From Escherichia coli O157 typing phage 13, in the sequence record KP869111: 64,000 bases of DNA; one strand, 5' to 3'. The position numbers and the translations under genes were made by a program. Positions within the stretch are counted from its first letter, which is position 1. Each line of letters begins with the position of its first letter. The notes under the pieces were generated by a model. It worked only from the letters and a program-made list of their open reading frames with translations. It ran no database searches and was not told where the DNA came from. Shown here piece by piece: positions 6,470 to 24,680 of this stretch.

Positions 6470-6492
6470 AAAAAGGAACTCCGAAGAGTTCC
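6465..6492 (-). terminator. Rho-independent terminator (UUCG tetraloop hairpin plus U-run)
   Basis: Minus strand GGAACTC-TTCG-GAGTTCC followed by TTTTTT; lies immediately after the 57-aa ORF stop. Confidence 0.7.
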
Positions 6493-6665
6493 TATCCACA
6501 TAGTACACCGTACAGAGGCTCATTTGAACTTTTAAATCGAATTGGCTTGTACGTAATAGTTCCTTCGGCTTTAGCTTTATCATAAGACTCTTTAAAACGT
6601 CTCATTCTTTCTGCTTTGCCTTTACGGATTTTATCGAAATTTTCAGAAGTCGGGATGTTCGTCAT
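6492..6665 (-). CDS. Small basic protein, 57 aa (not in ORF track)
   Basis: Hand-translated: MTNIPTSENFDKIRKGKAERMRRFKESYDKAKAEGTITYKPIRFKSSNEPLYGVLCG; GAGGTG Shine-Dalgarno 6-9 nt upstream of ATG; stop abuts the terminator hairpin. Confidence 0.5.
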   Translation of the reverse strand: MTNIPTSENFDKIRKGKAERMRRFKESYDKAKAEGTITYKPIRFKSSNEPLYGVLCG

Positions 6666-6704
6666 GCATAAGCACCTCTCAGAAAATGCCTAAATCAATT
6701 TCTC

Positions 6705-6926
6705 TCATCGTTTCCACCATTTCTTAACTTGAAATGAATCGGCCCACACGAGTTGTTTTGGGTCTGCCTTTACAATAGGCGGACAAATTTCTGTAATAGA
6801 ACCGTCGTGATATTCCTTTTCAGAAATTTTAACACAAAGAGGACCTCCCAATTTAAGGGTGAACCCTGCGTTCAGCTTCAGACGTTTAAACTTTGTTTGA
6901 ACTAGCGCCATTAATGATGTCCTCAA
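6705..6926 (-). CDS. Hypothetical protein
   Basis: 73 aa ORF in the 47-55 interval; overlaps the 3' end of the upstream ORF, so start is uncertain. Confidence 0.4.
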   Translation of the reverse strand: MRTSLMALVQTKFKRLKLNAGFTLKLGGPLCVKISEKEYHDGSITEICPPIVKADPKQLVWADSFQVKKWWKR

Positions 6927-7209
6927 TAGCCTGACGAGTAGTAACCCACTGGATTTTAATTAACTTGTCATTGTATGGTTGTCGTAGAATATCCCGAGAT
7001 TTCTTAATAGCATATTCGTAAGCTTCGAAGTTGTTTTGAATTGCTGCTTCTTGAGCATGAGCATAAAGACGGTTTAGTTCAAAACGATTCTTTTTAAGAA
7101 TCTTTTCGGATTTTTTACGTGCTTCAGCTTCATTTTTCTTTTGGATTTCTTGTAGCATTTTAGCTACTGCATCTTCTGCTTCTTTATTTTCAATAATCTC
7201 GGTAGTCAT
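6886..7209 (-). CDS. Hypothetical protein
   Basis: 107 aa ORF; charged, helical-looking composition. Confidence 0.5.
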   Translation of the reverse strand: MTTEIIENKEAEDAVAKMLQEIQKKNEAEARKKSEKILKKNRFELNRLYAHAQEAAIQNNFEAYEYAIKKSRDILRQPYNDKLIKIQWVTTRQAIEDIINGASSNKV

Positions 7210-7210
7210 A

Positions 7211-7420
7211 TTATCTCATTAAATTAAAATAAAAACGTCCATCCTCTTCAATACAGAACTCATACTCAACTGGAGTCCCATTTATCGAAAATGACACGTC
7301 ATGTGGGTTCAAAGGGTCGATGTCAAAATTAATTTTAAATTCACGACCCAACAGTTTTACCAAATAAGGGATTGCTTCGTCAAAAGGTTCTTCTAAGTAG
7401 TTAGAGATGTCAATTGTCAT
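7211..7420 (-). CDS. Hypothetical protein
   Basis: Track ORF 7211-7504 overlaps gene 55; internal ATG near 7420-7426 gives about 70 aa starting [15 protein letters not shown]. Confidence 0.4.
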
Positions 7421-7967
7421 CCTCATATAAAAAATCCAAACTAGGCGAATCGCTAACAACTTCCTTCTTTTCAGCCCCAGGAGCTTTATAAGCGGATTCT
7501 TCATAATGCGTCATTTTATCGTAGATGTCTTGAATAAACGTTTCATCTACTAACGCTACCATATCATCGTCATGACTGTCGTAGACATTATGAACGAAGT
7601 AACTATATTTCTTTGCAACTTCCTTACGTTCTTTTTTGATACGTTGGACAAAAGCATTAAAACAAGCTCGAGTTATGTATGCATGTGGGTTATTGTACTT
7701 AGTTTCGTCGAAATTATGAAGTCCCTTAATAGAGGCTTCAATCCCATCTGCAATCATCTCCTGCTTCCAAGACTGGGTATATCCTGAAAAGTTGAAACGT
7801 TTGGACAGGCCTTCGGCGATAAGCATAATTGCTAAACCGATGGTATCATTCTGACGAATAATTTTGTTTGGGTCTTTATTATTTAAGAGCTCCTTTTTCC
7901 ACTCGATTATAGCGGCGAGAAGCTCTTTATTATTCACATAGTTATTTTTAGGTTTTTGTTCAGTCAT
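7410..7967 (-). CDS. 55: Late-transcription sigma factor gp55
   Basis: Track ORF starts with TTG at 7985; ATG at 7967 preceded by AAGAGGT gives 185 aa, exactly the T4 gp55 length; sequence matches recalled gp55 ([13 protein letters not shown]...[39 protein letters not shown]). Confidence 0.92.
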
Positions 7968-8039
7968 AAGTACCTCTTGGCTCAATTCATAGGTCTATTA
8001 TATCATAATATTTAGAGACCTATCTTAAAGCACGAGATA

Positions 8040-8309
8040 CTATCGGAGCAAACAATAAGCCTGAAACACTTTTTCCATTAAACGTTTGAACTCATGGATA
8101 TCGATATAAAGCTCAGTAAGACCTGCATTATAAAGAAAATCTAAAAAGTTCTCATGTGTTTCGTTATAGTCGCCTTCGTTTAATTGAGATACATGAGTTT
8201 CCCAAAAACCAACACCTTTAACGAATGGAAAATACGTGACTTTCATGTATTCGTCAACATAAAATTCGCCCAGCTTTTCTTCAGTTATACTGATTCGAGT
8301 TAATTTCAT
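8040..8309 (-). CDS. Hypothetical protein
   Basis: 89 aa ORF, ATG start, ATGA overlap with upstream ORF. Confidence 0.5.
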   Translation of the reverse strand: MKLTRISITEEKLGEFYVDEYMKVTYFPFVKGVGFWETHVSQLNEGDYNETHENFLDFLYNAGLTELYIDIHEFKRLMEKVFQAYCLLR

Positions 8310-8533
8310 TCTAGTTCCTTTGCTGCTTCAAGAGCAGCATCCAGCGAATCAAATTGGTCAACGAAATCAATATTCAACGCATCGTCAACCGTAGCATATA
8401 ACCACCATTGTTTGAATTCGTATTCAAGAATAAATCCAGGACCTTCAATCTGAGGAAGACCTAGGCTATTTGTACCAACTTCGTAACCAGCTAGACGCAG
8501 GTCATTAATCAAAGTTTCTGTTAATACGCTCAT
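8306..8533 (-). CDS. Hypothetical acidic protein
   Basis: 75 aa ORF, ATGA-coupled to neighbours. Confidence 0.5.
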   Translation of the reverse strand: MSVLTETLINDLRLAGYEVGTNSLGLPQIEGPGFILEYEFKQWWLYATVDDALNIDFVDQFDSLDAALEAAKELE

Positions 8534-8862
8534 TTTGCCGCCTTAACAATTTTCAGGTCAACGAATTTTTTCTTACGTTGATTTTTCATACGACGGATAG
8601 TCTTTTCAGAGATTTCATGTTTCTGATAAGCTTTAGATTCAACACCAAATGCAGCAACGTCAAATTCAGAAAGAATATATTGTACTAGAATTTCACGAAT
8701 AGAATTACGTCCAATTTTCTGGTCGTGTTTTTGCATGATTTCATAAAGACGGAATTCCCACGCATCAAGAACTTGAGGAGTAACAATATTGCCAGATTCC
8801 AGAAGAGCAACAACTTTATCGAAAGCGAAAGAATTAACTACGTTTTTGATTTTAGTAGACAT
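8530..8862 (-). CDS. Hypothetical protein
   Basis: Track ORF 8530-8901; ATG at 8862 has a strong GAGGAA Shine-Dalgarno; basic C-terminus. Confidence 0.5.
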   Translation of the reverse strand: MSTKIKNVVNSFAFDKVVALLESGNIVTPQVLDAWEFRLYEIMQKHDQKIGRNSIREILVQYILSEFDVAAFGVESKAYQKHEISEKTIRRMKNQRKKKFVDLKIVKAAK

Positions 8863-8928
8863 ATTATTTTCCTCGGTTATTTTATTATCCAACGAGGGCA
8901 TTATACTCTGCTCTCAAGAGTCTGTACA

Positions 8929-9168
8929 CTATTTTTTAAGCATGAAAAGCAAGTAATTTGTATCGCGTGGGCTGATATCGACACCCATATCAAAGATACC
9001 TTTATATATTGGGTATTTGTTTTCGGTTGTATCGAAGCTGAAACTATTTCCATCACAACTAACAGTAATAGCATCTGTTAAAATGTCATACTCAATCCTA
9101 ACAATTGAATCCCCAATTTTAACGTCGAGGTGTTTTTTGAATTTGATAAAATCTAATTCTTGGGCCAT
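8929..9168 (-). CDS. Hypothetical protein
   Basis: 79 aa; GAGGAA Shine-Dalgarno before ATG at 9168. Confidence 0.5.
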   Translation of the reverse strand: MAQELDFIKFKKHLDVKIGDSIVRIEYDILTDAITVSCDGNSFSFDTTENKYPIYKGIFDMGVDISPRDTNYLLFMLKK

Positions 9169-9231
9169 GATATTTTCCTCATTTTAAGACGATAGGAAGT
9201 CATGTTATTATCTTCCTATCGTTGTATATTA

Positions 9232-9432
9232 TTAACCGAACTTTTTAGCGCCTTTCCAGCCTTCGTACATAACTGCGCAAGTCAATAGCACGGCATGTTG
9301 GCATTCTTTGTATTTGTAAATCCAGAACCAGCGTAAAAAGTCTTCATCCTCAACACCGTTGAGTTTCATATTGGCAAAGAATTCGGCACGTTCTTCACGA
9401 AGTTGCCATGACACAATATTTTCAGGATTCAT
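9232..9432 (-). CDS. Hypothetical protein
   Basis: Track ORF 9232-9444 starts with GTG; ATG at 9432 overlaps upstream stop (ATGA). Confidence 0.45.
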   Translation of the reverse strand: MNPENIVSWQLREERAEFFANMKLNGVEDEDFLRWFWIYKYKECQHAVLLTCAVMYEGWKGAKKFG

Positions 9433-9563
9433 TTTGTGTTCCACGCCCCATTTTCATCGATGAACTTAATCCAGTCATTTACAGACCATTTAGTTGTATC
9501 ACCCTTTGGATTAACATTTAAAGTATATAATCCCTGCTTAAAAAGCATTCGTTTGATATTCAT
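9429..9563 (-). CDS. Hypothetical small protein (start uncertain)
   Basis: Track ORF 9429-9656 overlaps upstream gene; ATG at 9563 with GAGGA gives 44 aa. Confidence 0.3.
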   Translation of the reverse strand: MNIKRMLFKQGLYTLNVNPKGDTTKWSVNDWIKFIDENGAWNTK

Positions 9564-9570
9564 AATTTCC

Positions 9571-9864
9571 TCAACTGTAACGATAACATTCGTTAGCTTT
9601 ACGTTTGGCTTCAGTATGAGAAGTATTATAATCATACTCTTCTTTACTGTAAACATCTTTTTTCAACTTACGAACTTCTTTGCGGAGTTGTCGATTCATT
9701 TCGTTCTTGACTTCAGAATCAACGCCTTTCATACGCTTCCATTTATCAGAGCGGAATATGTTTTCAACCATGTCTTTGTGGCTAACACCGTCAGGAGCTT
9801 TACGTTTACCAAAATAGTCATAATCGCGAACTTTCAAATCTTTACGACGATACGTTTTACCCAT
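9571..9864 (-). CDS. Hypothetical highly basic protein
   Basis: Track ORF 9571-9891 starts with TTG; ATG at 9864 with GAGGT Shine-Dalgarno; Lys/Arg-rich. Confidence 0.5.
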   Translation of the reverse strand: MGKTYRRKDLKVRDYDYFGKRKAPDGVSHKDMVENIFRSDKWKRMKGVDSEVKNEMNRQLRKEVRKLKKDVYSKEEYDYNTSHTEAKRKANECYRYS

Positions 9865-9871
9865 AAGTACC

Positions 9872-10120
9872 TCAGAGGTTGATTGATACAACGCGTTTGA
9901 TAAAATTCACTTCACTTACTGAAAGGTCTTTAAGACCGATTGATTCTAAACGCTGAGTAAGCGTCAACATCGGGATATAATCCCAATGAGTTTTATTTGC
10001 TTGATAAGTACGAACGCCATTAGCAATTTCAACATGCAAATCGGAAATGGTAACGAATACCGGACGTTCGTCATTAACTTTAAGGGTTAGAACAACTTTC
10101 TTTGAATCTAAACTAATCAT
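9872..10120 (-). CDS. Hypothetical protein
   Basis: 82 aa, ATGA overlap with upstream ORF. Confidence 0.5.
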   Translation of the reverse strand: MISLDSKKVVLTLKVNDERPVFVTISDLHVEIANGVRTYQANKTHWDYIPMLTLTQRLESIGLKDLSVSEVNFIKRVVSINL

Positions 10121-10299
10121 GACTTAATTTCCTTCGCAATTGAACAGAAGATACCACGGTCACAAAGCATTTCACCAATTTCTGGATATTTGATTGAACG
10201 GTACCAAACATCCAGGCTTGAAACTCTGGTTATCTGTACTGCATTACCGTTGACAGAATAGTACTGGTCAACCTTAATTTCTTTATCTTCAATTGTCAT
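10117..10299 (-). CDS. Hypothetical small protein
   Basis: Track ORF 10117-10338; ATG at 10299 has a GAGGAA Shine-Dalgarno; first gene after the early promoter at 10329-10357. Confidence 0.45.
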   Translation of the reverse strand: MTIEDKEIKVDQYYSVNGNAVQITRVSSLDVWYRSIKYPEIGEMLCDRGIFCSIAKEIKS

Positions 10300-10328
10300 T
10301 TTATTTTCCTCTGTGGTAGATGGTGTTA

Positions 10329-10357
10329 ATCTTAACATATCTATCGAGGATGTAAAC
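10329..10357 (-). promoter_or_regulatory. T4-type early promoter (GTTTAC-N17-TAAGAT)
   Basis: Minus strand GTTTAC at 10357-10352, 17-nt spacer, TAAGAT at 10334-10329. Confidence 0.55.
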
Positions 10358-10439
10358 TGGTTTTATGAAAATATTTTTGATTTGAGAGGGGCACAAGGAG
10401 ATAGTGAAGTGAAGATTCCAATGGATTATATTAGAAATG

Positions 10440-10467
10440 AGATAAAGAAGACCAGGCGGCACCTGGT
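10440..10467 (-). terminator. Rho-independent terminator after the nrdH-like gene
   Basis: Minus strand GACCAGG-TGCCG-CCTGGTC followed by TTCTTTATCT; directly 3' of the nrdH-like stop. Confidence 0.6.
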
Positions 10468-10790
10468 CAATCTTCTATGATATCAGAGTCGTATCCTAAT
10501 GAAATCAAGGACTTTTTAAACTCTGCAATATTCTTTTGTTTCTTATCATTTAAAAATATGACAGGATAACGAATATTAAGTGAAGTGAATCCTGCACGTT
10601 TAGCAAGAGATACGATTAAAGGTCGGTCATATTCAATCTTACCATTATTAGTGAGGACTTTATAAAATGTATAAGGAGCATTGAGCTCCTTTAAAAGTTT
10701 TGTAACAGTATAACATCCTGGACAACGTCCTACTTCTTCAGGGATGCCATAAATTTCAATCTTGTTCTTTAAGTTCGAGTTTTGTTCCAC
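10467..10790 (-). CDS. nrdH: Glutaredoxin-like protein NrdH (probable GTG start)
   Basis: C-terminal 100 aa of track ORF 10467-10919 contains the redox motif CPGC (VGRCPGCYTVTKLL); the N-terminal part of the track ORF overlaps the neighbouring gene and is hydrophobic junk; GTG at 10790 has an AAGGA Shine-Dalgarno. Track and label coordinates disagree by 1 nt here. Confidence 0.6.
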   Translation of the reverse strand: MEQNSNLKNKIEIYGIPEEVGRCPGCYTVTKLLKELNAPYTFYKVLTNNGKIEYDRPLIVSLAKRAGFTSLNIRYPVIFLNDKKQKNIAEFKKSLISLGYDSDIIED

Positions 10791-11073
10791 GAGAAATAAT
10801 TCCTTGGTAAGCCCAATAAGGAGGATTAACAGAATCCTCGCCAGAGTTTTCTTCAGGAAAATAAACCTGGATAACAAATCCAGATGCATCAAAGGTAAAA
10901 TAAACCGTAGGCAGTTCACCTAACAATTCGGCACGAGCATTAATTTCTTCGAGATCTCGTTCACGTCCAGCCCAAAAACTAGGATTTAGATTACATTCGT
11001 AAAAATAATAGTCATTACCGAACATATCAAACCCCTTCCAACTCTCTACCACATACCGCTCAAAACTAATCAT
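10756..11073 (-). CDS. Hypothetical protein
   Basis: 105 aa ORF with ATG start. Confidence 0.5.
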   Translation of the reverse strand: MISFERYVVESWKGFDMFGNDYYFYECNLNPSFWAGRERDLEEINARAELLGELPTVYFTFDASGFVIQVYFPEENSGEDSVNPPYWAYQGIISRGTKLELKEQD

Positions 11074-11075
11074 AA

Positions 11076-11291
11076 TTAAGCCTTTTTATCAAGAACAGAA
11101 TTCAGTTTATTAGTAATTTTGTCCAAACGTTCATTGAATTCGCTGGAGGATAAACCCTTTTCCGGAGAAATTAAACTAATCACGAAAAATACACCAGTAA
11201 AAGGAATAAGAAAAATAGCTCCAACTGCCATAAACAAAAAGAACGTTACAGTTGTAAGAAAATCAGCTAAACCTTTACGAAATTTATACAT
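11076..11291 (-). CDS. Hypothetical small membrane protein
   Basis: 71 aa; hydrophobic stretch FFLFMAVGAIFLIPFTGVFFVISLI. Confidence 0.5.
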   Translation of the reverse strand: MYKFRKGLADFLTTVTFFLFMAVGAIFLIPFTGVFFVISLISPEKGLSSSEFNERLDKITNKLNSVLDKKA

Positions 11292-11402
11292 ATTTACCCT
11301 TAATTAATTAACCAAGCATTGATAAGCAAACCATATTGCGAATAAAATTCTGGACCAAAATGAAAAATCATATCATTTATAGTATCCATAATGTAGTTCA
11401 AT

Positions 11403-11873
11403 TTAATCATGTTTCCACACCCCATTGGTATTCGACCAAAGTCGCTGATTATCTGATCCTCGCCACAGTTTTTTGGTCGGAAGATTTTTCTCATACTTCC
11501 CATCAATAATAACATCAACATATTTAAGCATTTCTAGTTGTTTAATATCTTCAAACTTATATCCTGTCCACAACCAAATGCTTTTATTGGGATAAATATT
11601 TTTTACTGTTTGAACAATGCAATGAACAACATCTCTATTATCAGGATAGAGAGGGTCGCCTCCGGTTATAGTCAATCCTTCTATATAATCATTATTCAAA
11701 CATTCAATTAATTGTTCTAGTGTCTCTCCAGTGAATGGAGCACCATTTCTAGCGTTCCATGTTGATTTATTATAACACCCTTCACATTTATGCAAACAAC
11801 CTGTAACGAAAAGAACGACCCTGCAACCAGGGCCATTCACAAAATCGCAAGGATAAAATCTATCATAATTCAT
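11403..11873 (-). CDS. nrdG: Anaerobic ribonucleotide reductase activating protein NrdG (radical SAM)
   Basis: 156 aa, same as T4 NrdG; cysteine cluster CLHKCEGCYN typical of glycyl-radical activases. Confidence 0.9.
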   Translation of the reverse strand: MNYDRFYPCDFVNGPGCRVVLFVTGCLHKCEGCYNKSTWNARNGAPFTGETLEQLIECLNNDYIEGLTITGGDPLYPDNRDVVHCIVQTVKNIYPNKSIWLWTGYKFEDIKQLEMLKYVDVIIDGKYEKNLPTKKLWRGSDNQRLWSNTNGVWKHD

Positions 11874-13687
11874 TGGTGTTTAACCCTATGCATGATTTCT
11901 TTATTTTTACCGAGATTAAATCCGCGTTCGTTCGGATTTCCCAAATAACCGCATGTTCTTCTTATGGTGTTCATCTTTTTAGGATCAGTTTCTCCGCAAA
12001 CTGAACAAACAAATCCGTTTTCAGTAGGAGTCATTTCATGGGTACTTCCACATGTAAAACATTTATCTACTGGCATATTAACACCAAAATAATCTAAATG
12101 TTGTGCAGCATAATCCCAGACAGCCTCAAGTCCCTTTAAATTGTTTTTCATATCTGGAAGTTCAACATAAGAAATGTGACCACCTGTCGCAATGAAATGA
12201 TATGGCGCTTCACGAGAAATCTTTTCAAACGGAGTAATATTTTCTTCTACTGAAACATGGAAACTATTAGTGTACCAGCCTTTATCTGTAACATCTTTTA
12301 CACTTCCATATTTTTCTGTGTCTAGTTTACAGAAACGATAACAAAGGTTTTCAGCAGGTGTAGAATACAAGCTAAAAGCAAACCCAGTTCTTTCAGTCCA
12401 TTGTTTAAGAAGAGCATTCATTTTAGTTAAAATTTCTTGTCCAATATCACGTCCGACAAGAATATTCAATTCGTGGATACCAATGTATCCTAAAGACACT
12501 GAACTTCTACCGTTTTTAAATAACTCAATTATGTCGTCATCAGGTTTAAGACGAACCCCGAATGCACCTTCTTGGTAAAGAATAGGAGCAACAGTCGCTT
12601 TAACTCCTTTTAAGGAACTAATTCTACACATCAAGGCTTCAAAACACAGATCCATACGTTCATTGAATAATTCAACAAATTTCTGTTCATTGAACTGTGT
12701 TCCAATATAAGAATCTAATGCGATACGAGGAAGATTCAGTGTTACAACACCGAGATTATTACGTCCATCAAGAATTTCATTACCAGTCGAATCTTTCCAT
12801 ACGCTCAAGAAACTACGGCAACCCATTGGAGAAACTGGAACTGAAGAACCAGTAATAGCTTTATTATTCTTAGCTGAAATAATATCAGGATACATTCTTT
12901 TGCTTGCGCACTCTAGAGCAAGCTGCTTAATATCATAGTTCGGATCGTCTTTATAAAGATTAACACCTTCTTCAACGAACATAACAAGCTTAGGGAAAAT
13001 AGGAGTTATTCCATCACGACCAAGACCTTTAATGCGGTTTTTAAGAATTGCCTTCTGAATCATTCGTTCAGTCCAATCGGCCCCCGTACCAAATGTAATT
13101 GTTACAAAAGGTGTTTGTCCGTTTGAACTAAAGAGAGTATTTACTTCATATTCATAAGCTTGGAACGCGTCATAGACATCTTTTTCTGTTTTGGATTGAG
13201 CATAATTCAACGCATCAGCGATTTGCCATTTTTCCGCATCTTCAACATGTTTAGCGTATGTGCGTTTAACATAAGGAGAAAGAACTTTATCGACATTTGC
13301 AAATGTAGTTCCGCCATACTGATGTGAAGCAACTTGTGCAGTAATTTGTGCCATAATTGCAGTAGCAACACCAATCGATTTAGGCGTTTCAATTTGAGCA
13401 TTGCCTAATTTAAATCCGTTCTCAAGCATCCCCTTTAAATCGACTAAACAACAATTAGTAAACGGAAGAGCAGGAGAATAATCAATATCATGCATGTGGA
13501 TAATTCCACTTTCATGCGCATTCATAATAAAAGACGGGACCATATTTTTGGCAATGTGCTTAGACACAATACCAGCCATAAGGTCCCGTTGAGTTGGAAA
13601 AACACGAGAATCTTTATTAGCATTCTCGTTTAAAAGGTCTTTATTAGTTTTATGAATTAATCCTTCAATTTCTTTTTCAATTTTCAT
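11870..13687 (-). CDS. nrdD: Anaerobic ribonucleoside-triphosphate reductase NrdD (uninterrupted, no intron)
   Basis: 605 aa, the T4 NrdD length; C-terminal Zn-ribbon CFTCGSTHE...CSVCG and glycyl radical region RTCGYLG. Confidence 0.95.
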   Translation of the reverse strand: MKIEKEIEGLIHKTNKDLLNENANKDSRVFPTQRDLMAGIVSKHIAKNMVPSFIMNAHESGIIHMHDIDYSPALPFTNCCLVDLKGMLENGFKLGNAQIETPKSIGVATAIMAQITAQVASHQYGGTTFANVDKVLSPYVKRTYAKHVEDAEKWQIADALNYAQSKTEKDVYDAFQAYEYEVNTLFSSNGQTPFVTITFGTGADWTERMIQKAILKNRIKGLGRDGITPIFPKLVMFVEEGVNLYKDDPNYDIKQLALECASKRMYPDIISAKNNKAITGSSVPVSPMGCRSFLSVWKDSTGNEILDGRNNLGVVTLNLPRIALDSYIGTQFNEQKFVELFNERMDLCFEALMCRISSLKGVKATVAPILYQEGAFGVRLKPDDDIIELFKNGRSSVSLGYIGIHELNILVGRDIGQEILTKMNALLKQWTERTGFAFSLYSTPAENLCYRFCKLDTEKYGSVKDVTDKGWYTNSFHVSVEENITPFEKISREAPYHFIATGGHISYVELPDMKNNLKGLEAVWDYAAQHLDYFGVNMPVDKCFTCGSTHEMTPTENGFVCSVCGETDPKKMNTIRRTCGYLGNPNERGFNLGKNKEIMHRVKHQ

Positions 13688-14157
13688 TTTAAACTCTTTC
13701 TAAGCTGCTTTTTGAATGAAGCTATTAATTGTGTTTTAGTATCAGATTCATTATATTCAAATCCTCTTTGAAGCATCTCAGTCATCATTTCCTCTTTACC
13801 TAGTCTTGAGAACTCTTTAGTTTTGTCTGGAACAAAATTAGGATGGATATTATTATCAGAATAATCTTGTTTCAAATAAGCAAGAAGAGCTTCAAGCCAT
13901 TCGAGGTAATCAACGTTTTGACCTTTAAGACCAGAACGGTTGAACTTATGCTTCATTTGACCTTCTGCTGCATTGCACAGGTTACATAGTAAACCACGAA
14001 CCTTACCAGCTTTTGGCCCGTTTAATTCATGGTCGTGGTCAAGATGGTTACCTTGAACATCAGGGTCTAATTCACGGTGGCAAATAGGACACTTACCATT
14101 CTGTGCATCATAAAATTTTTGTTTTTCTTCTTTATATTTTGCGCCTGATAATAACAT
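13684..14157 (-). CDS. 49: Endonuclease VII (Holliday junction resolvase) gp49
   Basis: 157 aa; near-identical to recalled T4 gp49 (NGKCxICxREL...HLDHDHELNGPKAGKVRGLLCNLCNAAEGQMKHKFNRSGLKGQ). Confidence 0.93.
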   Translation of the reverse strand: MLLSGAKYKEEKQKFYDAQNGKCPICHRELDPDVQGNHLDHDHELNGPKAGKVRGLLCNLCNAAEGQMKHKFNRSGLKGQNVDYLEWLEALLAYLKQDYSDNNIHPNFVPDKTKEFSRLGKEEMMTEMLQRGFEYNESDTKTQLIASFKKQLRKSLK

Positions 14158-14163
14158 GATAAA

Positions 14164-14194: not shown

Positions 14195-14384
14195 ATTTAG
14201 TAAACGTTATAAAAGTCTCGATGGAAACGCTTATACTGACGAATCATTCTTTTAGTAGGACGAGTTTCTGAAATAATTGAAGTCCTCATATTTGGATTGT
14301 TTGGGGCCCAATCATAATAAATTTCCAGGATTTTTGCCCATTTTTTCTTTCGCCATAAAATAGTTCAGTTTTCATAATAAGCCC

Positions 14385-14798: not shown

Positions 14799-14799
14799 A

Positions 14800-14970
14800 T
14801 CAATATTCTCTATAAAAGTTACGATGAGAACGTTTAGCTTTGCGAAGCTGACGTTTAGTAGGACGAACTGTAAATGGTTGTCCAGAGAAAAAATTCGGAT
14901 CGGTTTTAATAAGCAAATACCAATCATGTTTGCCATTTTTTAATAAACGGTACAATAATTTAACTTGCAT
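14800..14970 (-). CDS. Hypothetical small basic protein
   Basis: Track ORF starts with TTG at 14997; ATG at 14970 with GGAAGAG upstream; 56 aa with a basic C-terminus. Confidence 0.4.
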   Translation of the reverse strand: MQVKLLYRLLKNGKHDWYLLIKTDPNFFSGQPFTVRPTKRQLRKAKRSHRNFYREY

Positions 14971-17370: not shown

Positions 17371-17398
17371 AATATTTTCCTCTCGTTAAGATAGATTC

Positions 17399-17428: not shown

Positions 17429-17432
17429 TATT

Positions 17433-18392: not shown

Positions 18393-18419
18393 TTTATATT
18401 CCTCATGTTGAAAAATTTA

Positions 18420-18448
18420 TTATACTCCAACCATCCTTGGTTGTACAT
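18420..18448 (-). promoter_or_regulatory. Early promoter-like cassette (repeat of 17399-17428)
   Basis: TATAAT at 18425-18420 and TGTACA 17 nt upstream; 25 of 26 nt identical to the cassette at 17401-17426. Confidence 0.5.
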
Positions 18449-19443
18449 CATTCCTTAAGAAGTTTTACTACCTGAATAAGATTAGCTCGTTCTGTTTTAT
18501 TTTTACCGTTTAAGCCTGCTAATCGTGAGATTTCATCGTCAGTCTGTTGAATAGTTACATTAAGTTCGTTAATCAAAGCTTCAAAGTATTTGATTTGCTC
18601 AGCATGTTTTGATTCAAATTTCTGAACCGGAATAACGTCTTGGTTCAGTTCATCAATAAGGTCTTTAAGAGCATCTTCTTGGTTGATATCATATTCAACT
18701 TCTTTTATTTCTTCAACGAGCTCGTCTTTATATCTAACGTCTTTTAGTCCTGGAGCTGGTCCTGAAATCTCTTCTTTAAGAGTACAAACATACCCAATAC
18801 GGTATCCAACGCCGTCTCGCTTGATATCAACTTCGTCGATAAATCCACAATGTTTAAGTCCAGAGCCGATTATGTCAAAATATCCTTGACGTCGTCCTTC
18901 AAACGTTACACGAACTACTAAGACGGTTTTGCCACCGACCTTTTGAAGCTCACATTTATAAAAGTTTGTTGAACCTGAATAACATGGATGAGTTTTAAAG
19001 TTCATCTGACGATCTAGGCCCATTTGTAAACGTGCTGTTACGGCCATAAAACGTGTTTGGTTCTCGTTAAGATGAGCAACAATCCATTTCAAAGGCATTT
19101 TACCCTGTTCACGGCCGAACAAATCAGTACGTCCTAGATTACGCAGGATGTTGTTAGAGTTAATCATCGACAGAACGTTAAGTTTATTCAGCGCGCTGAA
19201 GATTCCATCAGCCATTGATTTTCCATAACCTTTACACGCTTTAATAAGTGCTCGCGGCAGATTAGTATAGATTTCAGACGGCATATGAAAATCAAATTTA
19301 CTAGTCAGTAATTGATGAACTTGGATAGCAATTTGCTCATAATTAAGTGCTCTGCGATCGTTATGGTCTTTAAACCATACTTTAATCTGTGAAGCACATA
19401 AACCGTTAATTTCATGTTTTACCGCATCAGATGTAATGCTCAT
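18448..19443 (-). CDS. Hypothetical protein with C-terminal coiled coil (tandem set member 3)
   Basis: 331 aa; GAGGAA Shine-Dalgarno; C-terminal coiled coil KYFEALINELNVTIQQTDDEISRLAGLNGKNKTERANLIQVVKLLKE. Confidence 0.6.
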   Translation of the reverse strand: MSITSDAVKHEINGLCASQIKVWFKDHNDRRALNYEQIAIQVHQLLTSKFDFHMPSEIYTNLPRALIKACKGYGKSMADGIFSALNKLNVLSMINSNNILRNLGRTDLFGREQGKMPLKWIVAHLNENQTRFMAVTARLQMGLDRQMNFKTHPCYSGSTNFYKCELQKVGGKTVLVVRVTFEGRRQGYFDIIGSGLKHCGFIDEVDIKRDGVGYRIGYVCTLKEEISGPAPGLKDVRYKDELVEEIKEVEYDINQEDALKDLIDELNQDVIPVQKFESKHAEQIKYFEALINELNVTIQQTDDEISRLAGLNGKNKTERANLIQVVKLLKE

Positions 19444-19505
19444 AACTATTTCCTCGGATTGAATTGGAACTCAAAACCATTATAACCCGTCCTTGGGTAA
19501 AGCGT

Positions 19506-20033
19506 TTATGCGTGAACCGACTTTAAACGTTCTTCAAATTTCCGAAGAGTACTAATACGTTCTGCTTTCTGTTTTGTATAGTTTGCAATACGTTCTGAAG
19601 TGAGAGCGTATCGTTCGTTTACTGTTTCTTTCATGAAGTCAGGGATTTCACGAGAAGCTTTAATTTCATCAAACTTATCGAGTACTGCCTGGTCTTCAGC
19701 AATTAAATTTTCGTACATCTCGATATCTTTCTTGATGAAGTCGATATCTTCCTGGGTTACTTTGGATAAACGAGATGCTTTATCCTTTTTGTACTGCTCG
19801 TTAGTTTCACGAGACCAGAATAATGTACGTTTTTTGTTAGTGTTTTTGTAGACTTCCACAATTCCAACTGAATCGATGATAACAATCCAATTCCAGCGAG
19901 ATTTGAAAATCTGACCTCCGTCCACGGTAATCTCGTTACCATAAGCAATGTCATTAAAGAACTTACTTTGTGCTTCGGATTTAAATTTACCGTCGTTATA
20001 ATTTACCAGGTTGAAAATATCTTTAGCGTTCAT
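19506..20033 (-). CDS. Hypothetical protein with C-terminal coiled coil
   Basis: 175 aa; GGAGGT Shine-Dalgarno; charged helical C-terminal half. Confidence 0.55.
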   Translation of the reverse strand: MNAKDIFNLVNYNDGKFKSEAQSKFFNDIAYGNEITVDGGQIFKSRWNWIVIIDSVGIVEVYKNTNKKRTLFWSRETNEQYKKDKASRLSKVTQEDIDFIKKDIEMYENLIAEDQAVLDKFDEIKASREIPDFMKETVNERYALTSERIANYTKQKAERISTLRKFEERLKSVHA

Positions 20034-20060
20034 GTTTTACCTCCAGTAGTTGATAGGTCT

Positions 20061-20089
20061 ATAATAACATAACCATAGACCTTGTAAAC
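20061..20089 (-). promoter_or_regulatory. T4-type early promoter with flanking inverted repeat
   Basis: Minus strand GTTTAC (20089-20084), 17-nt spacer, TATTAT (20066-20061); inverted repeat AGGTCTAT/ATAGACCT at 20055-20062 and 20075-20082. Confidence 0.5.
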
Positions 20090-20091
20090 AA

Positions 20092-20379
20092 CTAAAAGAA
20101 ACTTTTTTCGGTATTTTTTCCACTGAACCAAACAGACTTCGGGATTTTTTGTAATTTTTCAGATTTAAGTTTCTCTTCCTGTTCTTTCTTATATACACCC
20201 TTGTCGTACTGGAGCATCTCTATGACATTCTTTTGCAAACGATCTAAGGTAATTAAGGCTTTAGTTTTTCCTTTCAAGGAAGAGTCCTGGCGAACCTCCT
20301 CGCTATATTGCATTGTAGAACTAACCATACGATGAGCATAGAGTTCGACTGCGGCTTTAATTTTTTGCATAAAATCCAT
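20092..20379 (-). CDS. Hypothetical protein
   Basis: 95 aa; strong AAAGAGGA Shine-Dalgarno before ATG at 20379. Confidence 0.5.
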   Translation of the reverse strand: MDFMQKIKAAVELYAHRMVSSTMQYSEEVRQDSSLKGKTKALITLDRLQKNVIEMLQYDKGVYKKEQEEKLKSEKLQKIPKSVWFSGKNTEKSFF

Positions 20380-20517
20380 AACATATCCTCTTTGATTTGT
20401 ACATCATTATTTTTAAATATTTCTATGCCCTCAGTAGGTTCCTGGTGTCCTTCTTTGAGGTAAGCCATATGATTATTCATCTTTATGGCTTTTGTTACCT
20501 CAGAACTTCCTATAAGC

Positions 20518-21498
20518 TTATTTCAGTAAAGTAACTTCCGAGATTTCTTCCCAACCATCTTTATCAGTTGAAATAAAATCTGCTACATAAAGAGCCGTAC
20601 GTAATGATACATTGCGAAGACGAGATACGTTAGCCTTCATCCAGGACAATGCTTTATACGTTTCTGCATCCGTCAGACCACGTTTCTGCATCATGTCAGT
20701 AGATAATATTACATCTTCAACTCGAACCATAATCTCTTCATTAGAGTGTACTCCAAGGTCGAGATACACTGAACGAGATACTAAAGCTTGAAGGTGTGGA
20801 GCAAGTTTCGAACCCCGTTCTAACTCTTTATCGATATCAACGTTTGTAATGAAAACGATAGTACCTTCAAACTCAAATTCTTTATCAATACCCTTATCCT
20901 CGAGATAAGATGACGCAGTGCTCCAACAAACTTTGCGTTTATCTCCGGTATCTAATGCTGCTTTAAGAAGGTTCAGGATGTCCATATCTGAGAATACGTC
21001 AACGTCATCGATTAAGAGAACGCTGTCTTCATCACGGTTGAGCCAAAGTTGTTCGTAAAGGCCAATACCAGAGATTTTACCATTAATGCTTTTGTATTTG
21101 ATGAAACCATTATCATTAGCATTATTAAGTGCTTTATCCAGAGAATACGTCTTACCAATACCAGCTGCACCTGAAATAATGAGTGAACGAATTTTGCCAT
21201 CGATAATGCCATTCGTCATCATGTTCATTACTTTAAAGCGTTTGTTGATACGGGTTTTCATATCTTCAGTGCTTTCAACAACTGCAACTGGTGATGTCTC
21301 AACTCCTTCCATTACGATGTCTGATTTGAAGACCCATACTCCACGTTCAGAACCATCAATCATAACGAAAATTTTACCATCACCTAAGTGGGAACATTCA
21401 GGATTAAGCTTTGCCGGGAACCAGGTCTTTGTGGCAACATAAGAACCAGAGATTTCGTTATTACGATAGATACCTTTTTTGATTTGAACGTTGAACAT
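20518..21498 (-). CDS. Putative AAA+/P-loop ATPase with an N-terminal domain of unknown function
   Basis: Track ORF 20518-21519; ATG at 21498 has a GGAGA Shine-Dalgarno; Walker A ISGAAGIGKTYS, Walker B VLLIDDVDVF, sensor-like IVFITN. Confidence 0.6.
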   Translation of the reverse strand: MFNVQIKKGIYRNNEISGSYVATKTWFPAKLNPECSHLGDGKIFVMIDGSERGVWVFKSDIVMEGVETSPVAVVESTEDMKTRINKRFKVMNMMTNGIIDGKIRSLIISGAAGIGKTYSLDKALNNANDNGFIKYKSINGKISGIGLYEQLWLNRDEDSVLLIDDVDVFSDMDILNLLKAALDTGDKRKVCWSTASSYLEDKGIDKEFEFEGTIVFITNVDIDKELERGSKLAPHLQALVSRSVYLDLGVHSNEEIMVRVEDVILSTDMMQKRGLTDAETYKALSWMKANVSRLRNVSLRTALYVADFISTDKDGWEEISEVTLLK

Positions 21499-21584
21499 TT
21501 TATTCTCCAATTTACTCATTTCGTTTCGATAGGTCTATAGTATCATATCCTAAAAGCATGTACACTACTTTTTAAAAATATTTT

Positions 21585-21611
21585 AACCCCCTAAAGGGAC
21601 CCGAAGGTCCC
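21585..21611 (-). terminator. Terminator-like UUCG-tetraloop hairpin after the secreted-protein gene
   Basis: Minus strand GGGACC-TTCG-GGTCCC followed by TTTAGGGGGTT; immediately 3' of the stop at 21617. Confidence 0.5.
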
Positions 21612-21616
21612 CACAT

Positions 21617-21883
21617 TTACTTATCACACTTAGCAACATAATTAGGCATATCACAGAATACAGAGCGAGTAACTACTCGACCCTTTGACCATGCTTCAGT
21701 TGCTTGTCCGGCCGTGCTATTAATATAGCTTGATTTAATGTTCTCAATACCCTGAGAATGTGATGCATTTACCGAACCGTTAGAAGGCCCAGAAGACTGG
21801 TTACCACCAGCTCCTGCGCCCGTGGTAGCACCAACAGAGAATGCCATCATTACTGCGAATAAACCAATTACTAATTTTTTCAT
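21617..21883 (-). CDS. Small secreted protein (predicted signal peptide)
   Basis: 88 aa; N-terminal MKKLVIGLFAVMMAFSVGA typical signal peptide, then Gly/Ser/Asn-rich linker and a C-terminal region with two Cys. Confidence 0.55.
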   Translation of the reverse strand: MKKLVIGLFAVMMAFSVGATTGAGAGGNQSSGPSNGSVNASHSQGIENIKSSYINSTAGQATEAWSKGRVVTRSVFCDMPNYVAKCDK

Positions 21884-21914
21884 ATTTACCTCAAGTTAAT
21901 GGTTATTTATCTAT

Positions 21915-22904
21915 TTATTTATAGTAAGAATTATGATTTTCGAGATAGACTTGCTCAAGGAAGTCATCCCAGAAACTCATATCTACTTTTTGTTGCATAC
22001 CGTTCTTAGCGGCTTGTTCTGACGCATGTTCAACTTGGTCAACGATATCTTCTAGGAATTCTTGCACAGTTTTAAACGTATGTTTACCAAGCTTAACATC
22101 GAGAATAAATGGAGCATCCTGAAGTGGGTAAACCAGGTCGCCGGTTTTGTAAATTTCCAATAATTGAAGTCCACCACGACATGCATGACTCAATGCTTTC
22201 CAGTCAATACCTTCGTTAGCTTCTGCCTTACGAGCACGTTCGCCATAGTTCTCTTCCAGTTTAACCAGGATGGCATTGAACTCTTTATTGGTTAACGTAT
22301 CTTGGAATTTACGGTCTAACAGATTATAGAATGTTTGCTTACCTGTTTTCTCGTTTTCGGTTTCAACCCATGAAGCAAATTCACCTACAGGCAGAACATT
22401 CTTCATATGTGATAAACGAATTACTGCACCATTATCAAAGTATTGTCCCCATTCATTAGAACGTTTAAGGGCTTGACGAAGAACAGCCAGTCGAGAACCC
22501 TTGACACCGTATTTAGAAGCTTGCTTACGGACATACCCTAAATAAGATTTCATGTTAGTGGTATAGAAACGAGACCTGTTATCTTGAATATACTTCCATA
22601 CATCAGGCAAATCAGATTTAACTACTAGACTTTGTGGAGTGTGAAGCATATCTAATGCGACGGTTTCACCATCTGCAGCTAGTTTAAAGAAATATTTGAG
22701 ACTATATAACTCATGGTCCACGTCGTCTTTTGTGTTCTTAGAAGATGTGTTATTCGTGTTCTTGCTCATGTGTTCTTTAACGTTACCGGTCAAGATATCA
22801 CGAGCATGAGGGACATAAATTTCTTTAAAATCGACGTCAGATTCAGGAGTAGACGTTCCATAAAGGTGGCTACCAAAGTAGCCTTTCATAATTGTTTTCA
22901 TCAT
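21915..22904 (-). CDS. Putative Pol-beta-superfamily nucleotidyltransferase
   Basis: 329 aa; N-terminal GS-x3-GT-x4-SDVD (YFGSHLYGTSTPESDVDF) plus downstream acidic residue (VALDM); start overlaps the stop of the upstream membrane-protein gene (ATGA). Confidence 0.6.
   Translation of the reverse strand: MMKTIMKGYFGSHLYGTSTPESDVDFKEIYVPHARDILTGNVKEHMSKNTNNTSSKNTKDDVDHELYSLKYFFKLAADGETVALDMLHTPQSLVVKSDLPDVWKYIQDNRSRFYTTNMKSYLGYVRKQASKYGVKGSRLAVLRQALKRSNEWGQYFDNGAVIRLSHMKNVLPVGEFASWVETENEKTGKQTFYNLLDRKFQDTLTNKEFNAILVKLEENYGERARKAEANEGIDWKALSHACRGGLQLLEIYKTGDLVYPLQDAPFILDVKLGKHTFKTVQEFLEDIVDQVEHASEQAAKNGMQQKVDMSFWDDFLEQVYLENHNSYYK
21916..21923 (-). promoter_or_regulatory. Late promoter-like TATAAATA upstream of the secreted-protein gene
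   Basis: Exact TATAAATA on the minus strand overlapping the last codons of the nucleotidyltransferase gene, 33 nt upstream of the ATG at 21883. Confidence 0.45.
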
Positions 22905-23374
22905 TTAGCCTTATATTCAAGAGTAGGACAGACTTTTTCTTTACGAGCTTTAAGGTATTCGCCTATTAATGATTTCTTACGTTCAATAGGCTCAAGTCCA
23001 TTTTTAATTCGTTCTTGGTTTTGCGCAATGAGCTCAATTTCTTTATAATATTTTCTGTCGTTATATTTGTCTAACAACCAAGACGGACCAATTACCAACC
23101 CGGTAGCAATAAAAGCCATGACTGCTACAATTAAAATGCCTACACCAATTGAGGCTGGAACTAATGTCCATAGACTGCTAAAAACAAAGAATTTAGTTAA
23201 AATTTCCTGGCCAATGATTGTGACTGCTGCTAAAATCGCAAATCCAATAATTGAAACAGCCAATACCGGGATTAACGTTTTCCAAAAATAAGCACACAAC
23301 GTTTTCGGACGATTCCATGTACTATTGAACGCGGCATAAATTTTAAAGTGCCAAGAGTTTTCATTGATAATCAT
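22901..23374 (-). CDS. Hypothetical membrane protein (about 3 transmembrane helices)
   Basis: 157 aa; hydrophobic segments LIPVLAVSIIGFAILAAVTII, FFVFSSLWTLVPASIGVGILIVAVMAFIATGLVI; AAGGA Shine-Dalgarno. Confidence 0.55.
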   Translation of the reverse strand: MIINENSWHFKIYAAFNSTWNRPKTLCAYFWKTLIPVLAVSIIGFAILAAVTIIGQEILTKFFVFSSLWTLVPASIGVGILIVAVMAFIATGLVIGPSWLLDKYNDRKYYKEIELIAQNQERIKNGLEPIERKKSLIGEYLKARKEKVCPTLEYKAK

Positions 23375-23383
23375 AATAATTCC

Positions 23384-23914
23384 TTATTTCAAAGTTGGGA
23401 TAATAGAATCGAGATAAGCTTTAAGAGCAACTGCTTCATCTTTGTCTAATGTAACGATATGTTGACGAAGGTCATCAATTTGACGAATAACTACAACATC
23501 GCCATCTTCATAAGAAGGATTAACGCCTAGGACCGTTGTATAGTCAGGGCGGTCCTGATTTGTAATAAAAGCATTACGGCATTTAGCCCATTGAAGTTTG
23601 GCCTTTTTGGCTATTTCAGATTCCATTAATTCTTTCACCTTAGTGACGAATGTTTTCCAATTATTGATAGAAAGGCATTCATCTTCTGTTTCGATATTAA
23701 CCCCACTATAAAGACCGTGATAAAAACGAACTTGAAGGTCTTCATCGATGTTAATTACAGATGCATGGCCTGGCGGATTGAGTTTCAAAATCTTGTCCAG
23801 TTCCATAGGAAGAATAGTAACAGAATCATCTTCTTGTGTCAGAACGTAAGCATAACCACGTTTTTCGATACATAAATCACCAAACAACTCGGTTGTTTCA
23901 ATTACAATTTTCAT
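23384..23914 (-). CDS. Hypothetical protein
   Basis: Track ORF starts with TTG at 23926; ATG at 23914 gives 176 aa (MKIVIETTELFGDL...). Confidence 0.55.
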   Translation of the reverse strand: MKIVIETTELFGDLCIEKRGYAYVLTQEDDSVTILPMELDKILKLNPPGHASVINIDEDLQVRFYHGLYSGVNIETEDECLSINNWKTFVTKVKELMESEIAKKAKLQWAKCRNAFITNQDRPDYTTVLGVNPSYEDGDVVVIRQIDDLRQHIVTLDKDEAVALKAYLDSIIPTLK

Positions 23915-23915
23915 A

Positions 23916-24095
23916 TTATTCACCAATTAAAGTTTCAACAAAATTCACCAAAGCATTCTGGCACGCATCAACCTGATTTTCATAAAAGTCTCCGTTATCA
24001 TTTACCGCGTGATAAGCTACATCATTCAAATCTGAATCGGCTTCACGTAGGTCACGGATAAGGTCCATCAATTTATTAGCTTGTTCACGGGTCAT
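23916..24095 (-). CDS. Small acidic protein, 58 aa (not in ORF track)
   Basis: Hand-translated MTREQANKLMDLIRDLREADSDLNDVAYHAVNDNGDFYENQVDACQNALVNFVETLIGE; ATG overlaps the stop of the upstream small ORF (ATGA). Confidence 0.35.
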   Translation of the reverse strand: MTREQANKLMDLIRDLREADSDLNDVAYHAVNDNGDFYENQVDACQNALVNFVETLIGE

Positions 24096-24202
24096 TTTAC
24101 CATACTCGTTTCAATAAGATTCACTATGCCGTTTACCATGTTATAAGTAAACATCGGATAATTGTATTGTACTACAACATAAGCGATAAGCAAAAGTTTC
24201 AT
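24092..24202 (-). CDS. Small hydrophobic peptide, 37 aa (not in ORF track)
   Basis: Hand-translated MKLLLIAYVVVQYNYPMFTYNMVNGIVNLIETSMVK; GGAGA Shine-Dalgarno 5 nt upstream; first ORF after the early promoter at 24231-24260. Confidence 0.3.
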   Translation of the reverse strand: MKLLLIAYVVVQYNYPMFTYNMVNGIVNLIETSMVK

Positions 24203-24230
24203 TTTGTTCTCCGTTTGTTTTGGTAGGACT

Positions 24231-24260
24231 ACTATAACATAGTCCTACCAAGATGTAAAC
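24231..24260 (-). promoter_or_regulatory. T4-type early promoter inside a palindromic cassette
   Basis: Minus strand GTTTAC (24260-24255), 18-nt spacer, TATAGT (24236-24231); 10-bp inverted repeat GGTAGGACTA/TAGTCCTACC spans 24222-24249; cassette near-identical to 34476-34512. Confidence 0.6.
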
Positions 24261-24466
24261 TACCGATTGTGTTTTAAATGTTGATAAAGTTCTTCAACTT
24301 GTTTTGGGTCTAAAACAATTAGGTCATTTTCTTGGCGAAGATAAATCCATCCCTTATCCCCAGGACCATTTTTACAAAACATTGCCACCATATCATCATC
24401 TTCAGCGCTTTCAGGTAAAAGTTCAAGCACACCGTCTTCAGATTTTCTAGTATAATCGTAAAGCAT
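24260..24466 (-). CDS. Hypothetical small acidic protein
   Basis: Track ORF 24260-24493; ATG at 24466 has a GAGGA Shine-Dalgarno; 68 aa. Confidence 0.45.
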   Translation of the reverse strand: MLYDYTRKSEDGVLELLPESAEDDDMVAMFCKNGPGDKGWIYLRQENDLIVLDPKQVEELYQHLKHNR

Positions 24467-24473
24467 AATATCC

Positions 24474-24653
24474 TCACATAATCTCGTTAACATACATTTG
24501 CAATTCAGTGTGGGCGTCGGCCATCTTTTTCATAGCTCTGTTAATGTCGATGTCTCCATCTTCGCACCCATGAGCATTTTCCCAATCAGATACCGCATTA
24601 GCATACTCTTCAATCAAAAACATCAACTTAGAAATCTTTTCTTTACGTGTCAT
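24474..24653 (-). CDS. Small protein, 59 aa (not in ORF track)
   Basis: Hand-translated MTRKEKISKLMFLIEEYANAVSDWENAHGCEDGDIDINRAMKKMADAHTELQMYVNEIM; GGAGA Shine-Dalgarno; follows the promoter at 24681-24709. Confidence 0.4.
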   Translation of the reverse strand: MTRKEKISKLMFLIEEYANAVSDWENAHGCEDGDIDINRAMKKMADAHTELQMYVNEIM

Positions 24654-24680
24654 AGCGTTCTCCTATAGTAAGTAAGGACT

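Follow-up and report, generated by a model that had tools for sequence, protein, structure and literature searches.

T4-type phages carry so-called PeSL cassettes, each combining an early promoter with a stem-loop, in the hyperplastic regions of their genomes (Arbiol 2010, PMC2839356; Comeau 2014, PMC4122927). Here, we analyzed a 64,000-nucleotide stretch of Escherichia coli O157 typing phage 13 (sequence record KP869111; hereafter, the window) with regard to four small open reading frames (ORFs), which are the counterparts of a-gt.2, mobD.2a and mobD.2 of T4 and of a gene labelled tk.1 in phage RB69. In a time-resolved transcriptome and proteome of T4, the relatives of these genes all belong to the early RNA class (PMC9697503, supplement files 4 and 6), and proteins were detected for a-gt.2 (late class), mobD.3 and mobD.4 (early) and tk.1 (middle) (PMC9697503 supplements). 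Upon dCas13d knock-down in T4, a-gt.2, mobD.2, mobD.2a, mobD.3 and mobD.4 were all scored “Not Fit”, i.e., with no fitness cost in the laboratory host (PMC11879866, supplement file 15), and nrdC.11-mobD.3 is among the large fragments lost in viable mutants obtained by T4 genome reduction (PMC9825161). Searching the literature for the gene and DUF names retrieved one paper only, in which mobD.3 is listed just as the boundary of a block that can be deleted.

We found that the four ORFs are almost certainly real, conserved, protein-coding micro-genes of a T4-like coliphage. Annotation and names exist for all of them, so that the finding, although sound, lacks novelty, and no gene is added beyond the public annotation. 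With a probability that we would put at roughly 80%, they are explained as real, expressed accessory micro-genes of a Mosigvirus phage, namely a-gt.2, mobD.2a, mobD.2 and a tk.1-like paralogue of the DUF7438 family. All four lie on the minus strand, exactly where the first-pass annotation, made from the nucleotide sequence alone, had placed them. Their absence from the ORF track, which that annotation had also pointed out, is genuine but reflects merely a 60-aa display cut-off, and all of them are coding sequences (CDSs) in RefSeq NC_041863.1 of typing phage 3. It is thus shown that a reader confined to the sequence is able to find real micro-genes in the early region of T4-type phages.

The a-gt.2 orthologue (6492-6665, minus strand; RefSeq FDG79_gp189) encodes a basic protein of 57 aa with an isoelectric point (pI) of 9.8. 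Both signals ascribed to it were confirmed: the Shine-Dalgarno (SD) sequence GAGGTG (6673-6678, minus), recovered by reading of the sequence and by an SD scan, lies 7 nt before the ATG, and an intrinsic terminator (6474-6493, minus), detected by a terminator scan and by folding, follows directly 3′. The latter forms a UUCG-capped stem of 8 bp followed by a U-run, has a folding energy of -13.9 kcal/mol (z score -4.04; read from 6493 to 6474), begins within the a-gt.2 stop codon and carries an annotation in phage ATK47. The protein matches Pfam DUF5486 over residues 9-57 with 97.3 bits (gathering cut-off 27), as well as phrog_2140, and shares 74% amino-acid identity with T4 a-gt.2 (NP_049675). 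Orthology is also supported by gene order, as a-gt.3 lies upstream of a-gt.2 in the studied phage and in ATK47, RB14 and JS10. Like its T4 counterpart, a-gt.2 is positioned after a-gt.3 and retains the C-terminal motif EGTITYK.I.F.SSNEPLYGVLCG; its length of 57 aa is the same in RB14, JS10 and others, whereas the annotated T4 protein is extended by six N-terminal residues. It closes, as the last cistron, the overlapping series 55/a-gt.5/a-gt.4/a-gt.3/a-gt.2. Unlike T4, the studied phage lacks the genes a-gt and mobB, so that a-gt.2 is directly followed by the terminator and gene 47.

The mobD.2a orthologue (24474-24653, minus; 59 aa, pI 4.8; RefSeq FDG79_gp230), which bears this name in RB69, is preceded by GGAGA located 5 nt before the ATG, as had been read from the sequence. 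It matches Pfam DUF7438 with 61 bits (cut-off 25) and phrog_2758. The mobD.2 orthologue (24092-24202, minus; RefSeq FDG79_gp228) and the tk.1-like gene (23916-24095, minus; RefSeq FDG79_gp227; “tk.1” in RB69) had been described as a coupled pair of 37 and 58 aa. The 4-nt ATGA overlap is real, but the products are of 36 and 59 aa. The former is hydrophobic, is preceded by the SD GGAGAA, matches phrog_3515 (E 1e-20) and is 65% identical to T4 MobD.2 (NP_049712), while the latter, with a pI of 4.1, matches DUF7438 with 57.2 bits (cut-off 25) and phrog_4859.

Each of the four ORFs is, as judged from sequence comparison, under purifying selection as a protein. Frame matches detected by tblastn in phage records, mostly with full coverage, number 815 for a-gt.2, 639 for mobD.2a, 837 for mobD.2 and 154 for the tk.1-like gene, and those of mobD.2 come from phages of many host genera. 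The subfamily of the tk.1-like gene (phrog_4859), with its 154 records, occurs in Mosigvirus-type phages only. In a ten-sequence Mosigvirus alignment, the variable sites at the three codon positions are distributed 3/1/23 for mobD.2a, with a ratio of nonsynonymous to synonymous substitutions (dN/dS) of 0.04, 5/6/21 for the tk.1-like gene (dN/dS 0.15) and 4/0/4 for mobD.2 (dN/dS 0.24), with no broken frame; the dN/dS of mobD.2 is cited for within-group pairs only, since a one-codon indel invalidates the comparison of the E. coli-phage group with other phages. The adjacent DUF7189 gene shows a dN/dS of 0.22. For a-gt.2, the ratio is 0.12-0.20 against Tequatrovirus relatives, while against Dhakavirus-type relatives the synonymous sites are saturated and the C-terminal half is almost invariant. 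Between mobD.2 and its T4 counterpart, the proportions of synonymous (pS) and nonsynonymous (pN) differences are 0.73 and 0.19 (omega 0.08). The test proposed in the first-pass annotation, i.e., conservation of the frames and their synonymous/nonsynonymous pattern in related phages, thus came out in favor of the ORFs, with intact frames in 154-837 phage genomes and dN/dS values of 0.04-0.24. A scan of IMG/VR returned three near-identical loci only.

Sequence features indicate that mobD.2a and mobD.2 each head a conserved PeSL-type cassette of early promoter and stem-loop. For mobD.2a, the early-type promoter GTTTACT-N16-TATAGT with a TG-extended -10 element (24681-24709, minus) is positioned such that the ATG lies ~21 nt past the inferred start site; the DUF7189 gene RB69ORF107c (24260-24466, minus; 68 aa) is the second cistron of the same unit. 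For mobD.2, the first cistron of its own unit, the corresponding promoter is GTTTACA-N17-TATAGT, likewise with a TG-extended -10 (24231-24260, minus). The four ORFs had all been placed directly downstream of early promoters; this is so for mobD.2a and mobD.2 but neither for the tk.1-like gene, which is a second, coupled cistron, nor for a-gt.2, as a scan of the 39-nt gap between a-gt.3 and a-gt.2 found no promoter-like site. Minus-strand promoters of the T4 early type (GTTTAC-N16/17-TAnnnT) are present at 34867, 34512, 31411, 28362, 24709, 24260, 20089, 17428 and 16454, each followed by an SD and an ATG after ~20–30 nt. A cassette of ~55 nt (AGTTTACATCTTGGTAGGACTATGTTATAGTAGTCCTACC...GGAGAA) occurs in three near-identical copies (24207-24261, 24658-24710 and 34459-34513), and the 14-mer GTTATAGTAGTCCT occurs exactly three times vs. 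0.45 expected. We also noted a weaker cassette copy at 28312-28363 and, by searching with the cassette DNA, 5–7 matching places per related genome. At mobD.2, folding revealed that the -10 element is embedded in an inverted repeat with 13 perfectly matched base pairs, i.e., a PeSL-type stem-loop (24220-24251, minus), with -20.6 kcal/mol and a z score of -4.18; none of 200 shuffles was equally stable, and the stem can be formed only in RNA read through from upstream.

These elements share with the published PeSLs a composite early promoter of the TTTACW-N17-TAYWAT type (here TTTACA-17-TATAGT and TTTACT-16-TATAGT), a stable stem, repetition in three near-identical copies plus weaker ones, and a location flanking variable small ORFs at indel breakpoints. 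They seem to differ in that the -10 element reads TATAGT, which deviates at one position from the T4/PST consensus in the literature, and in that the stem straddles the -10 element instead of preceding the promoter. The contig IMGVR_UViG_2706795553_000001 is colinear with the window through mobD.2a and the DUF7189 gene but unrelated from inside the 24260 cassette on, and the position of this divergence point suggests a recombination breakpoint within the promoter/stem-loop cassette. In phage PhAPEC2, this block is rearranged and additional ORFs are annotated. We propose that the cassettes at mobD.2a and mobD.2 would be recognized by the host sigma-70 RNA polymerase, and that the tk.1-like gene would be translated by ATGA coupling to mobD.2. 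Among other structures, a terminator-like hairpin with a U-run follows rI upstream of the 24709 promoter (24720-24748, minus; by folding) and was missed in a simple terminator scan because of its internal loop. At the minus-strand promoters 28362 (28290-28365) and 31411 (31340-31415), stems of 14 and 10 bp pair the -35/-10 spacer with the downstream SD (z ~ -3.9); as they form only in read-through RNA, the ribosome-binding site would be masked there and not in promoter-proximal transcripts.

The mobD.2 product has a grand average of hydropathy (GRAVY) of 0.77, and its core VQYNYPMFTYNLVN is kept in all seven aligned phages. In the same seven phages, which belong to different genera, the stop codon overlaps the ATG of the next gene (ATGA or TAATG), though the next gene varies: it is the DUF7438 gene here, mobD.1 in T4 and a gene for a DksA-like zinc-finger protein in phages of Klebsiella, Kosakonia and Aeromonas. 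With T4, the locus shares the tight coupling and an upstream early promoter cassette (DNA ~70–73% conserved), and it differs in the downstream partner and in two extra C-terminal residues of MobD.2. The DksA-like label is found on the gene coupled to the mobD.2 homologue in the T4-like phages of Klebsiella and Kosakonia, while in the Aeromonas phage a gene of the same size is labelled “hypothetical” and the mobD.2 homologue itself is unannotated (L027 292-665, L028 277-674 and L029 301-665 for the three host genera taken together). Despite having the widest distribution among the four micro-genes, mobD.2 has no CDS under the match in about one-third of 25 sampled phage records, and it is also without annotation in the original RB69 record AY303349 (L010 1094-1259).

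We consider mobD.2 to encode a conserved hydrophobic peptide that would be translated in tandem with whichever gene comes next. Another reading, unlikely but the one of the alternatives that fares best, is that mobD.2 is mainly a leader cistron, the translation of which (possibly with an effect of the nascent peptide) delivers ribosomes to a weakly initiating next gene, the free peptide being functionless. The overlap maintained in seven of seven phages in front of differing genes speaks for it, as does the weak SD (GAG only) before the tk.1-like gene, and the peptide has not been seen in T4. Yet simple coupling needs no particular amino-acid sequence, whereas that of MobD.2 is strongly conserved, both in its core and in its omega of 0.08 vs. 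T4. Besides, the non-detection is weak evidence, as tryptic mass spectrometry is poorly suited to peptides that are short and hydrophobic and contain two K/R residues. The tk.1-like gene itself lacks a separate promoter, and its stop is followed after 1 nt by the start of mobD.1.

The two 59-aa proteins, mobD.2a and tk.1-like, show no significant similarity to each other in BLASTP, and their kinship follows from the shared Pfam DUF7438 profile. A third member is the tk.1 orthologue (25901-26083, minus; 60 aa, at the ORF-track cut-off; RefSeq FDG79_gp234), with 58 bits. As T4 mobD.3, mobD.4, tk.1 and full-length mobD.2a also match DUF7438, there are three paralogues in the window and four in T4, differing in copy number and order; we observed that they flank the rI-tk locus on either side. 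Among eight members (three from the window, four from T4 and one database homologue), identity to the tk.1-like protein is 21–37%, and only E4, L12 and L49 are invariant, while the hydrophobic heptad positions are conserved. Both 59-aa proteins exhibit the family traits, i.e., an N-terminal T.E(Q/K)..K(L/I)..L(I/V), a C-terminal helix L..(F/Y)(L/V)(E/N), an acidic pI and a length of ~60 aa. The 38-aa mobD.2a of the T4 reference (NC_000866; L005 26994-27166) looks like a frameshift-truncated DUF7438 gene, the C-terminal part of which runs on in another frame (MFFSG...MVDAHTKLQNFIENVI); in a re-sequenced T4 (OZ209023; L006 1198-1371), there is an intact mobD.2a ORF of 57 aa (phrog_2758; DUF7438, 56.5 bits).

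An AlphaFold2 (AF2) model of the tk.1-like protein is a helical hairpin (H3-30/H39-58) with a mean predicted local distance difference test (pLDDT) score of 72.7. Its best full-length Foldseek analogues in the PDB are Rop/Rom variants, with TM scores of 0.76–0.83, and the phage anti-activator Aqs1, and the matches comprise generic helical hairpins only, none of them significant (E >=1). The predicted two-helix hairpin is equal in size to ColE1 Rop/Rom and to Aqs1 of phage DMS3, which is likewise a small protein of the early phase and inhibits host regulators; as there is no sequence relationship to DUF7438, this would be an analogy rather than membership. A search with the DUF7438 alignment profile in 1.84 billion representative proteins gave eight hits, among them P0057 (632 aa), which was rejected as spurious on account of its low-complexity repeat; the other seven are very small proteins or protein fragments. 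As just tiny phage proteins were retrieved, the search provided no informative domain fusions. PDB sequence searches with three of the four proteins found nothing below E = 0.7. The AF2 model of a-gt.2 (pLDDT 65.8) comprises a helix (7-34) and a beta-hairpin (39-54), with zero Foldseek matches in the PDB; a-gt.2 may thus be pictured as a small basic helix-plus-hairpin protein that may bind nucleic acid or protein.

As to function, we infer that the four micro-genes are accessory factors acting early in infection, and a role in host takeover or anti-defence is plausible. The T4 dispensability data, i.e., the knock-downs and the deletable block, are compatible with an accessory, host-specific role. 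For DUF7438, we tentatively propose, at somewhat less than even odds, dimeric helical-bundle binders that would titrate host or defence proteins. The proposal builds on early synthesis, on divergent paralogues in multiple copies on a conserved scaffold, on the recombination-prone accessory block and on dispensability in the laboratory host. According to it, the acidic hairpins of ~60 aa, the hydrophobic scaffold of which would be conserved and the surfaces diverged, probably pair into Rop-like four-helix bundles. Their synthesis would start within minutes of infection, and the proteins would most likely act by binding and neutralizing host proteins, i.e., as accessory factors for host takeover or counter-defence that are required in certain hosts only.

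A bolder extension, which we regard as doubtful, combines two ideas. The first is that mobD.2 is a near-universal “driver” micro-protein of 34–36 aa in T4-like phages that travels with a mobile early-promoter cassette and is always coupled in translation to a cargo gene that can be exchanged. The second is that DUF7438 is an unrecognized, rapidly diversifying family of early inhibitors, with 3–4 tandem or dispersed copies per T-even genome that all form acidic hairpins resembling Rop, the paralogues of which neutralize different host defence or housekeeping proteins. If true, the mobD.2 unit would serve as a module for the expression of accessory genes acquired recently. The four families occur in hundreds of sequenced coliphages, therapeutic candidates included, and the multi-copy DUF7438 genes and the promoter-linked, always-coupled mobD.2 are concrete candidates for host-interaction screens.

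Several points weigh against the interpretation of the four genes as expressed accessory factors with host-directed roles. For none of the four is a target, a toxic effect or a phenotype tied to defence known to us. The structural models give limited guidance, since that of a-gt.2 is of low confidence and without any fold match, the fold matches of DUF7438 are statistically insignificant in what is a generic fold, and a BFVD search with the DUF7438 model returned uncharacterized phage proteins only. The expression data stem from T4 and not from the studied phage, and even there the mobD.2 and mobD.2a proteins were not detected, with mobD.5 likewise having no protein class (PMC9697503 supplements). 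Finally, the absence of a phenotype upon knock-down would be expected just as well if the role were trivial or redundant as if it were host-specific.

Less probable than the leader-cistron reading of mobD.2 is the idea that the DUF7438 and mobD.2 genes serve the programme of the phage itself, be it lysis timing together with rI and rI.1 or phage gene regulation, rather than host targets. Their position, flanking rI, rI.1 and tk both in T4 and in the studied phage, agrees with it, and hydrophobicity such as that of MobD.2 is often met in lysis-related small proteins. However, the gene content of the block is highly variable, with the tk.1-like gene limited to Mosigvirus-type records, recombination breakpoints fall at promoter cassettes and the knock-downs had no effect on fitness; such features are typical of accessory genes in hyperplastic regions and not of genes of a core programme (PMC2839356, PMC4122927).

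It is highly improbable that the ORFs arose by chance in AT-rich DNA between genes and remain untranslated. It is true that the G+C content of the window is 37.5%, that six-frame ORF lists abound in spurious frames of 25–60 aa and that mobD.2 and mobD.2a have gone unseen in T4 mass spectrometry. In contrast, variation is concentrated at third codon positions with low dN/dS, and 65–74% of residues are retained vs. T4 despite nearly saturated synonymous sites. Hundreds of genomes carry the frames unbroken, curated Pfam families are matched above the cut-off, and in T4, proteins were detected for a-gt.2 and for mobD.3 and mobD.4, which are paralogues of the DUF7438 family. Moreover, SD-preceded ORFs of such size are very rare in shuffled sequence: in 5000 mononucleotide shuffles of two inter-gene intervals, the chance of an SD-preceded ATG ORF of this size was P ~0.0008 and ~0.0006. 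The selection and conservation data effectively refute the chance-frame reading.

The database labels by which the tk.1-like protein is a helicase loader (phrog_4859) and a-gt.2 homologues are head maturation proteases (phrog_17354), repeated in RefSeq and several GenBank records, can hardly be correct, since the proteins have just 59 and 57 aa and, at E up to 1, their Pfam matches are confined to DUF7438 or DUF5486, without any gp59, AAA+ or prohead-protease domain, and neither sequence nor fold matches to loader or protease counterparts were found in the PDB. We rejected “helicase loader” (also RefSeq gp227) for a 59-aa two-helix hairpin with DUF7438 as its only domain and no PDB sequence hit below E = 1. 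“Head maturation protease” was likewise discarded, as Pfam gives DUF5486 only and the phrog_17354 match is limited to the a-gt.2-like C-terminal positions 29-62 of the profile. The ORFs P0052 and P0055, of Citrobacter phage CF1 and its relatives, are 62-aa chimeras of an unrelated N-terminal segment and an a-gt.2 middle. These appear to be the source from which the protease label has spread to plain a-gt.2 in several GenBank records; their N-terminus differs from that of a-gt.2 and seems to resemble a prohead-protease fragment, with T4 gp21 as the reference. On proteins this small, neither label is to be trusted.

The window matches typing phages 3 (NC_041863.1) and 6 (NC_041864.1), members of Mosigvirus, i.e., RB69-like T-even phages, with 100% megablast identity over positions 6000-8000 and 23500-25000. 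In this part of the window, the genes lie on the minus strand and follow the T4 order: 45, 46, 47, a-gt.x, 55, nrdG/D, 49, pin, nrdC.x, mobD.x, rI, tk, vs and regB. Over positions 1-25000, position x of the window corresponds to 117970 - x of NC_041863.1; beyond ~25 kb, colinearity is lost because that record has an extra segment of ~8 kb. This segment, which includes the tRNA genes of typing phage 3, is absent from ~25000-64000 of the window, and the window has no tRNA gene and no Rfam match. The window resembles typing phage 6 in having neither and differs from NC_041864.1 by indels of ~160–170 nt.

The expectation that more such ORFs exist was borne out within window positions 1-25000, to which the census of small CDSs against NC_041863.1 was restricted: RefSeq holds four further CDSs below 60 aa there (9429-9563, 14197-14289, 14286-14375 and 14800-14970). 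Between nrdG and a 55.8-like gene, we also noted a candidate ORF of 36 aa (11300-11410, minus), which is unannotated in RefSeq for the studied phage and has tblastn matches in 683 phage records with 84–100% identity. Its DNA is ~90–95% conserved between genera, with indels that are not multiples of three (T4 -1, G3F7 +5 and EP02SG -4), and an RNA-structure signal was looked for at this locus and none was found. The locus may encode a protein or be a conserved element without coding function. As for the RefSeq CDSs, 14197-14289 (30 aa) and 14286-14375 (29 aa), which lie on the minus strand and overlap by ATGA, look like a DUF7279 paralogue that has been split in two: positions 32-53 of the DUF7279 profile are matched by the 30-aa ORF, while the 29-aa ORF is without a Pfam hit and shows an N-terminal likeness by eye. 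An intact DUF7279 gene of 56 aa (14800-14970) sits 500 nt upstream of the split pair.

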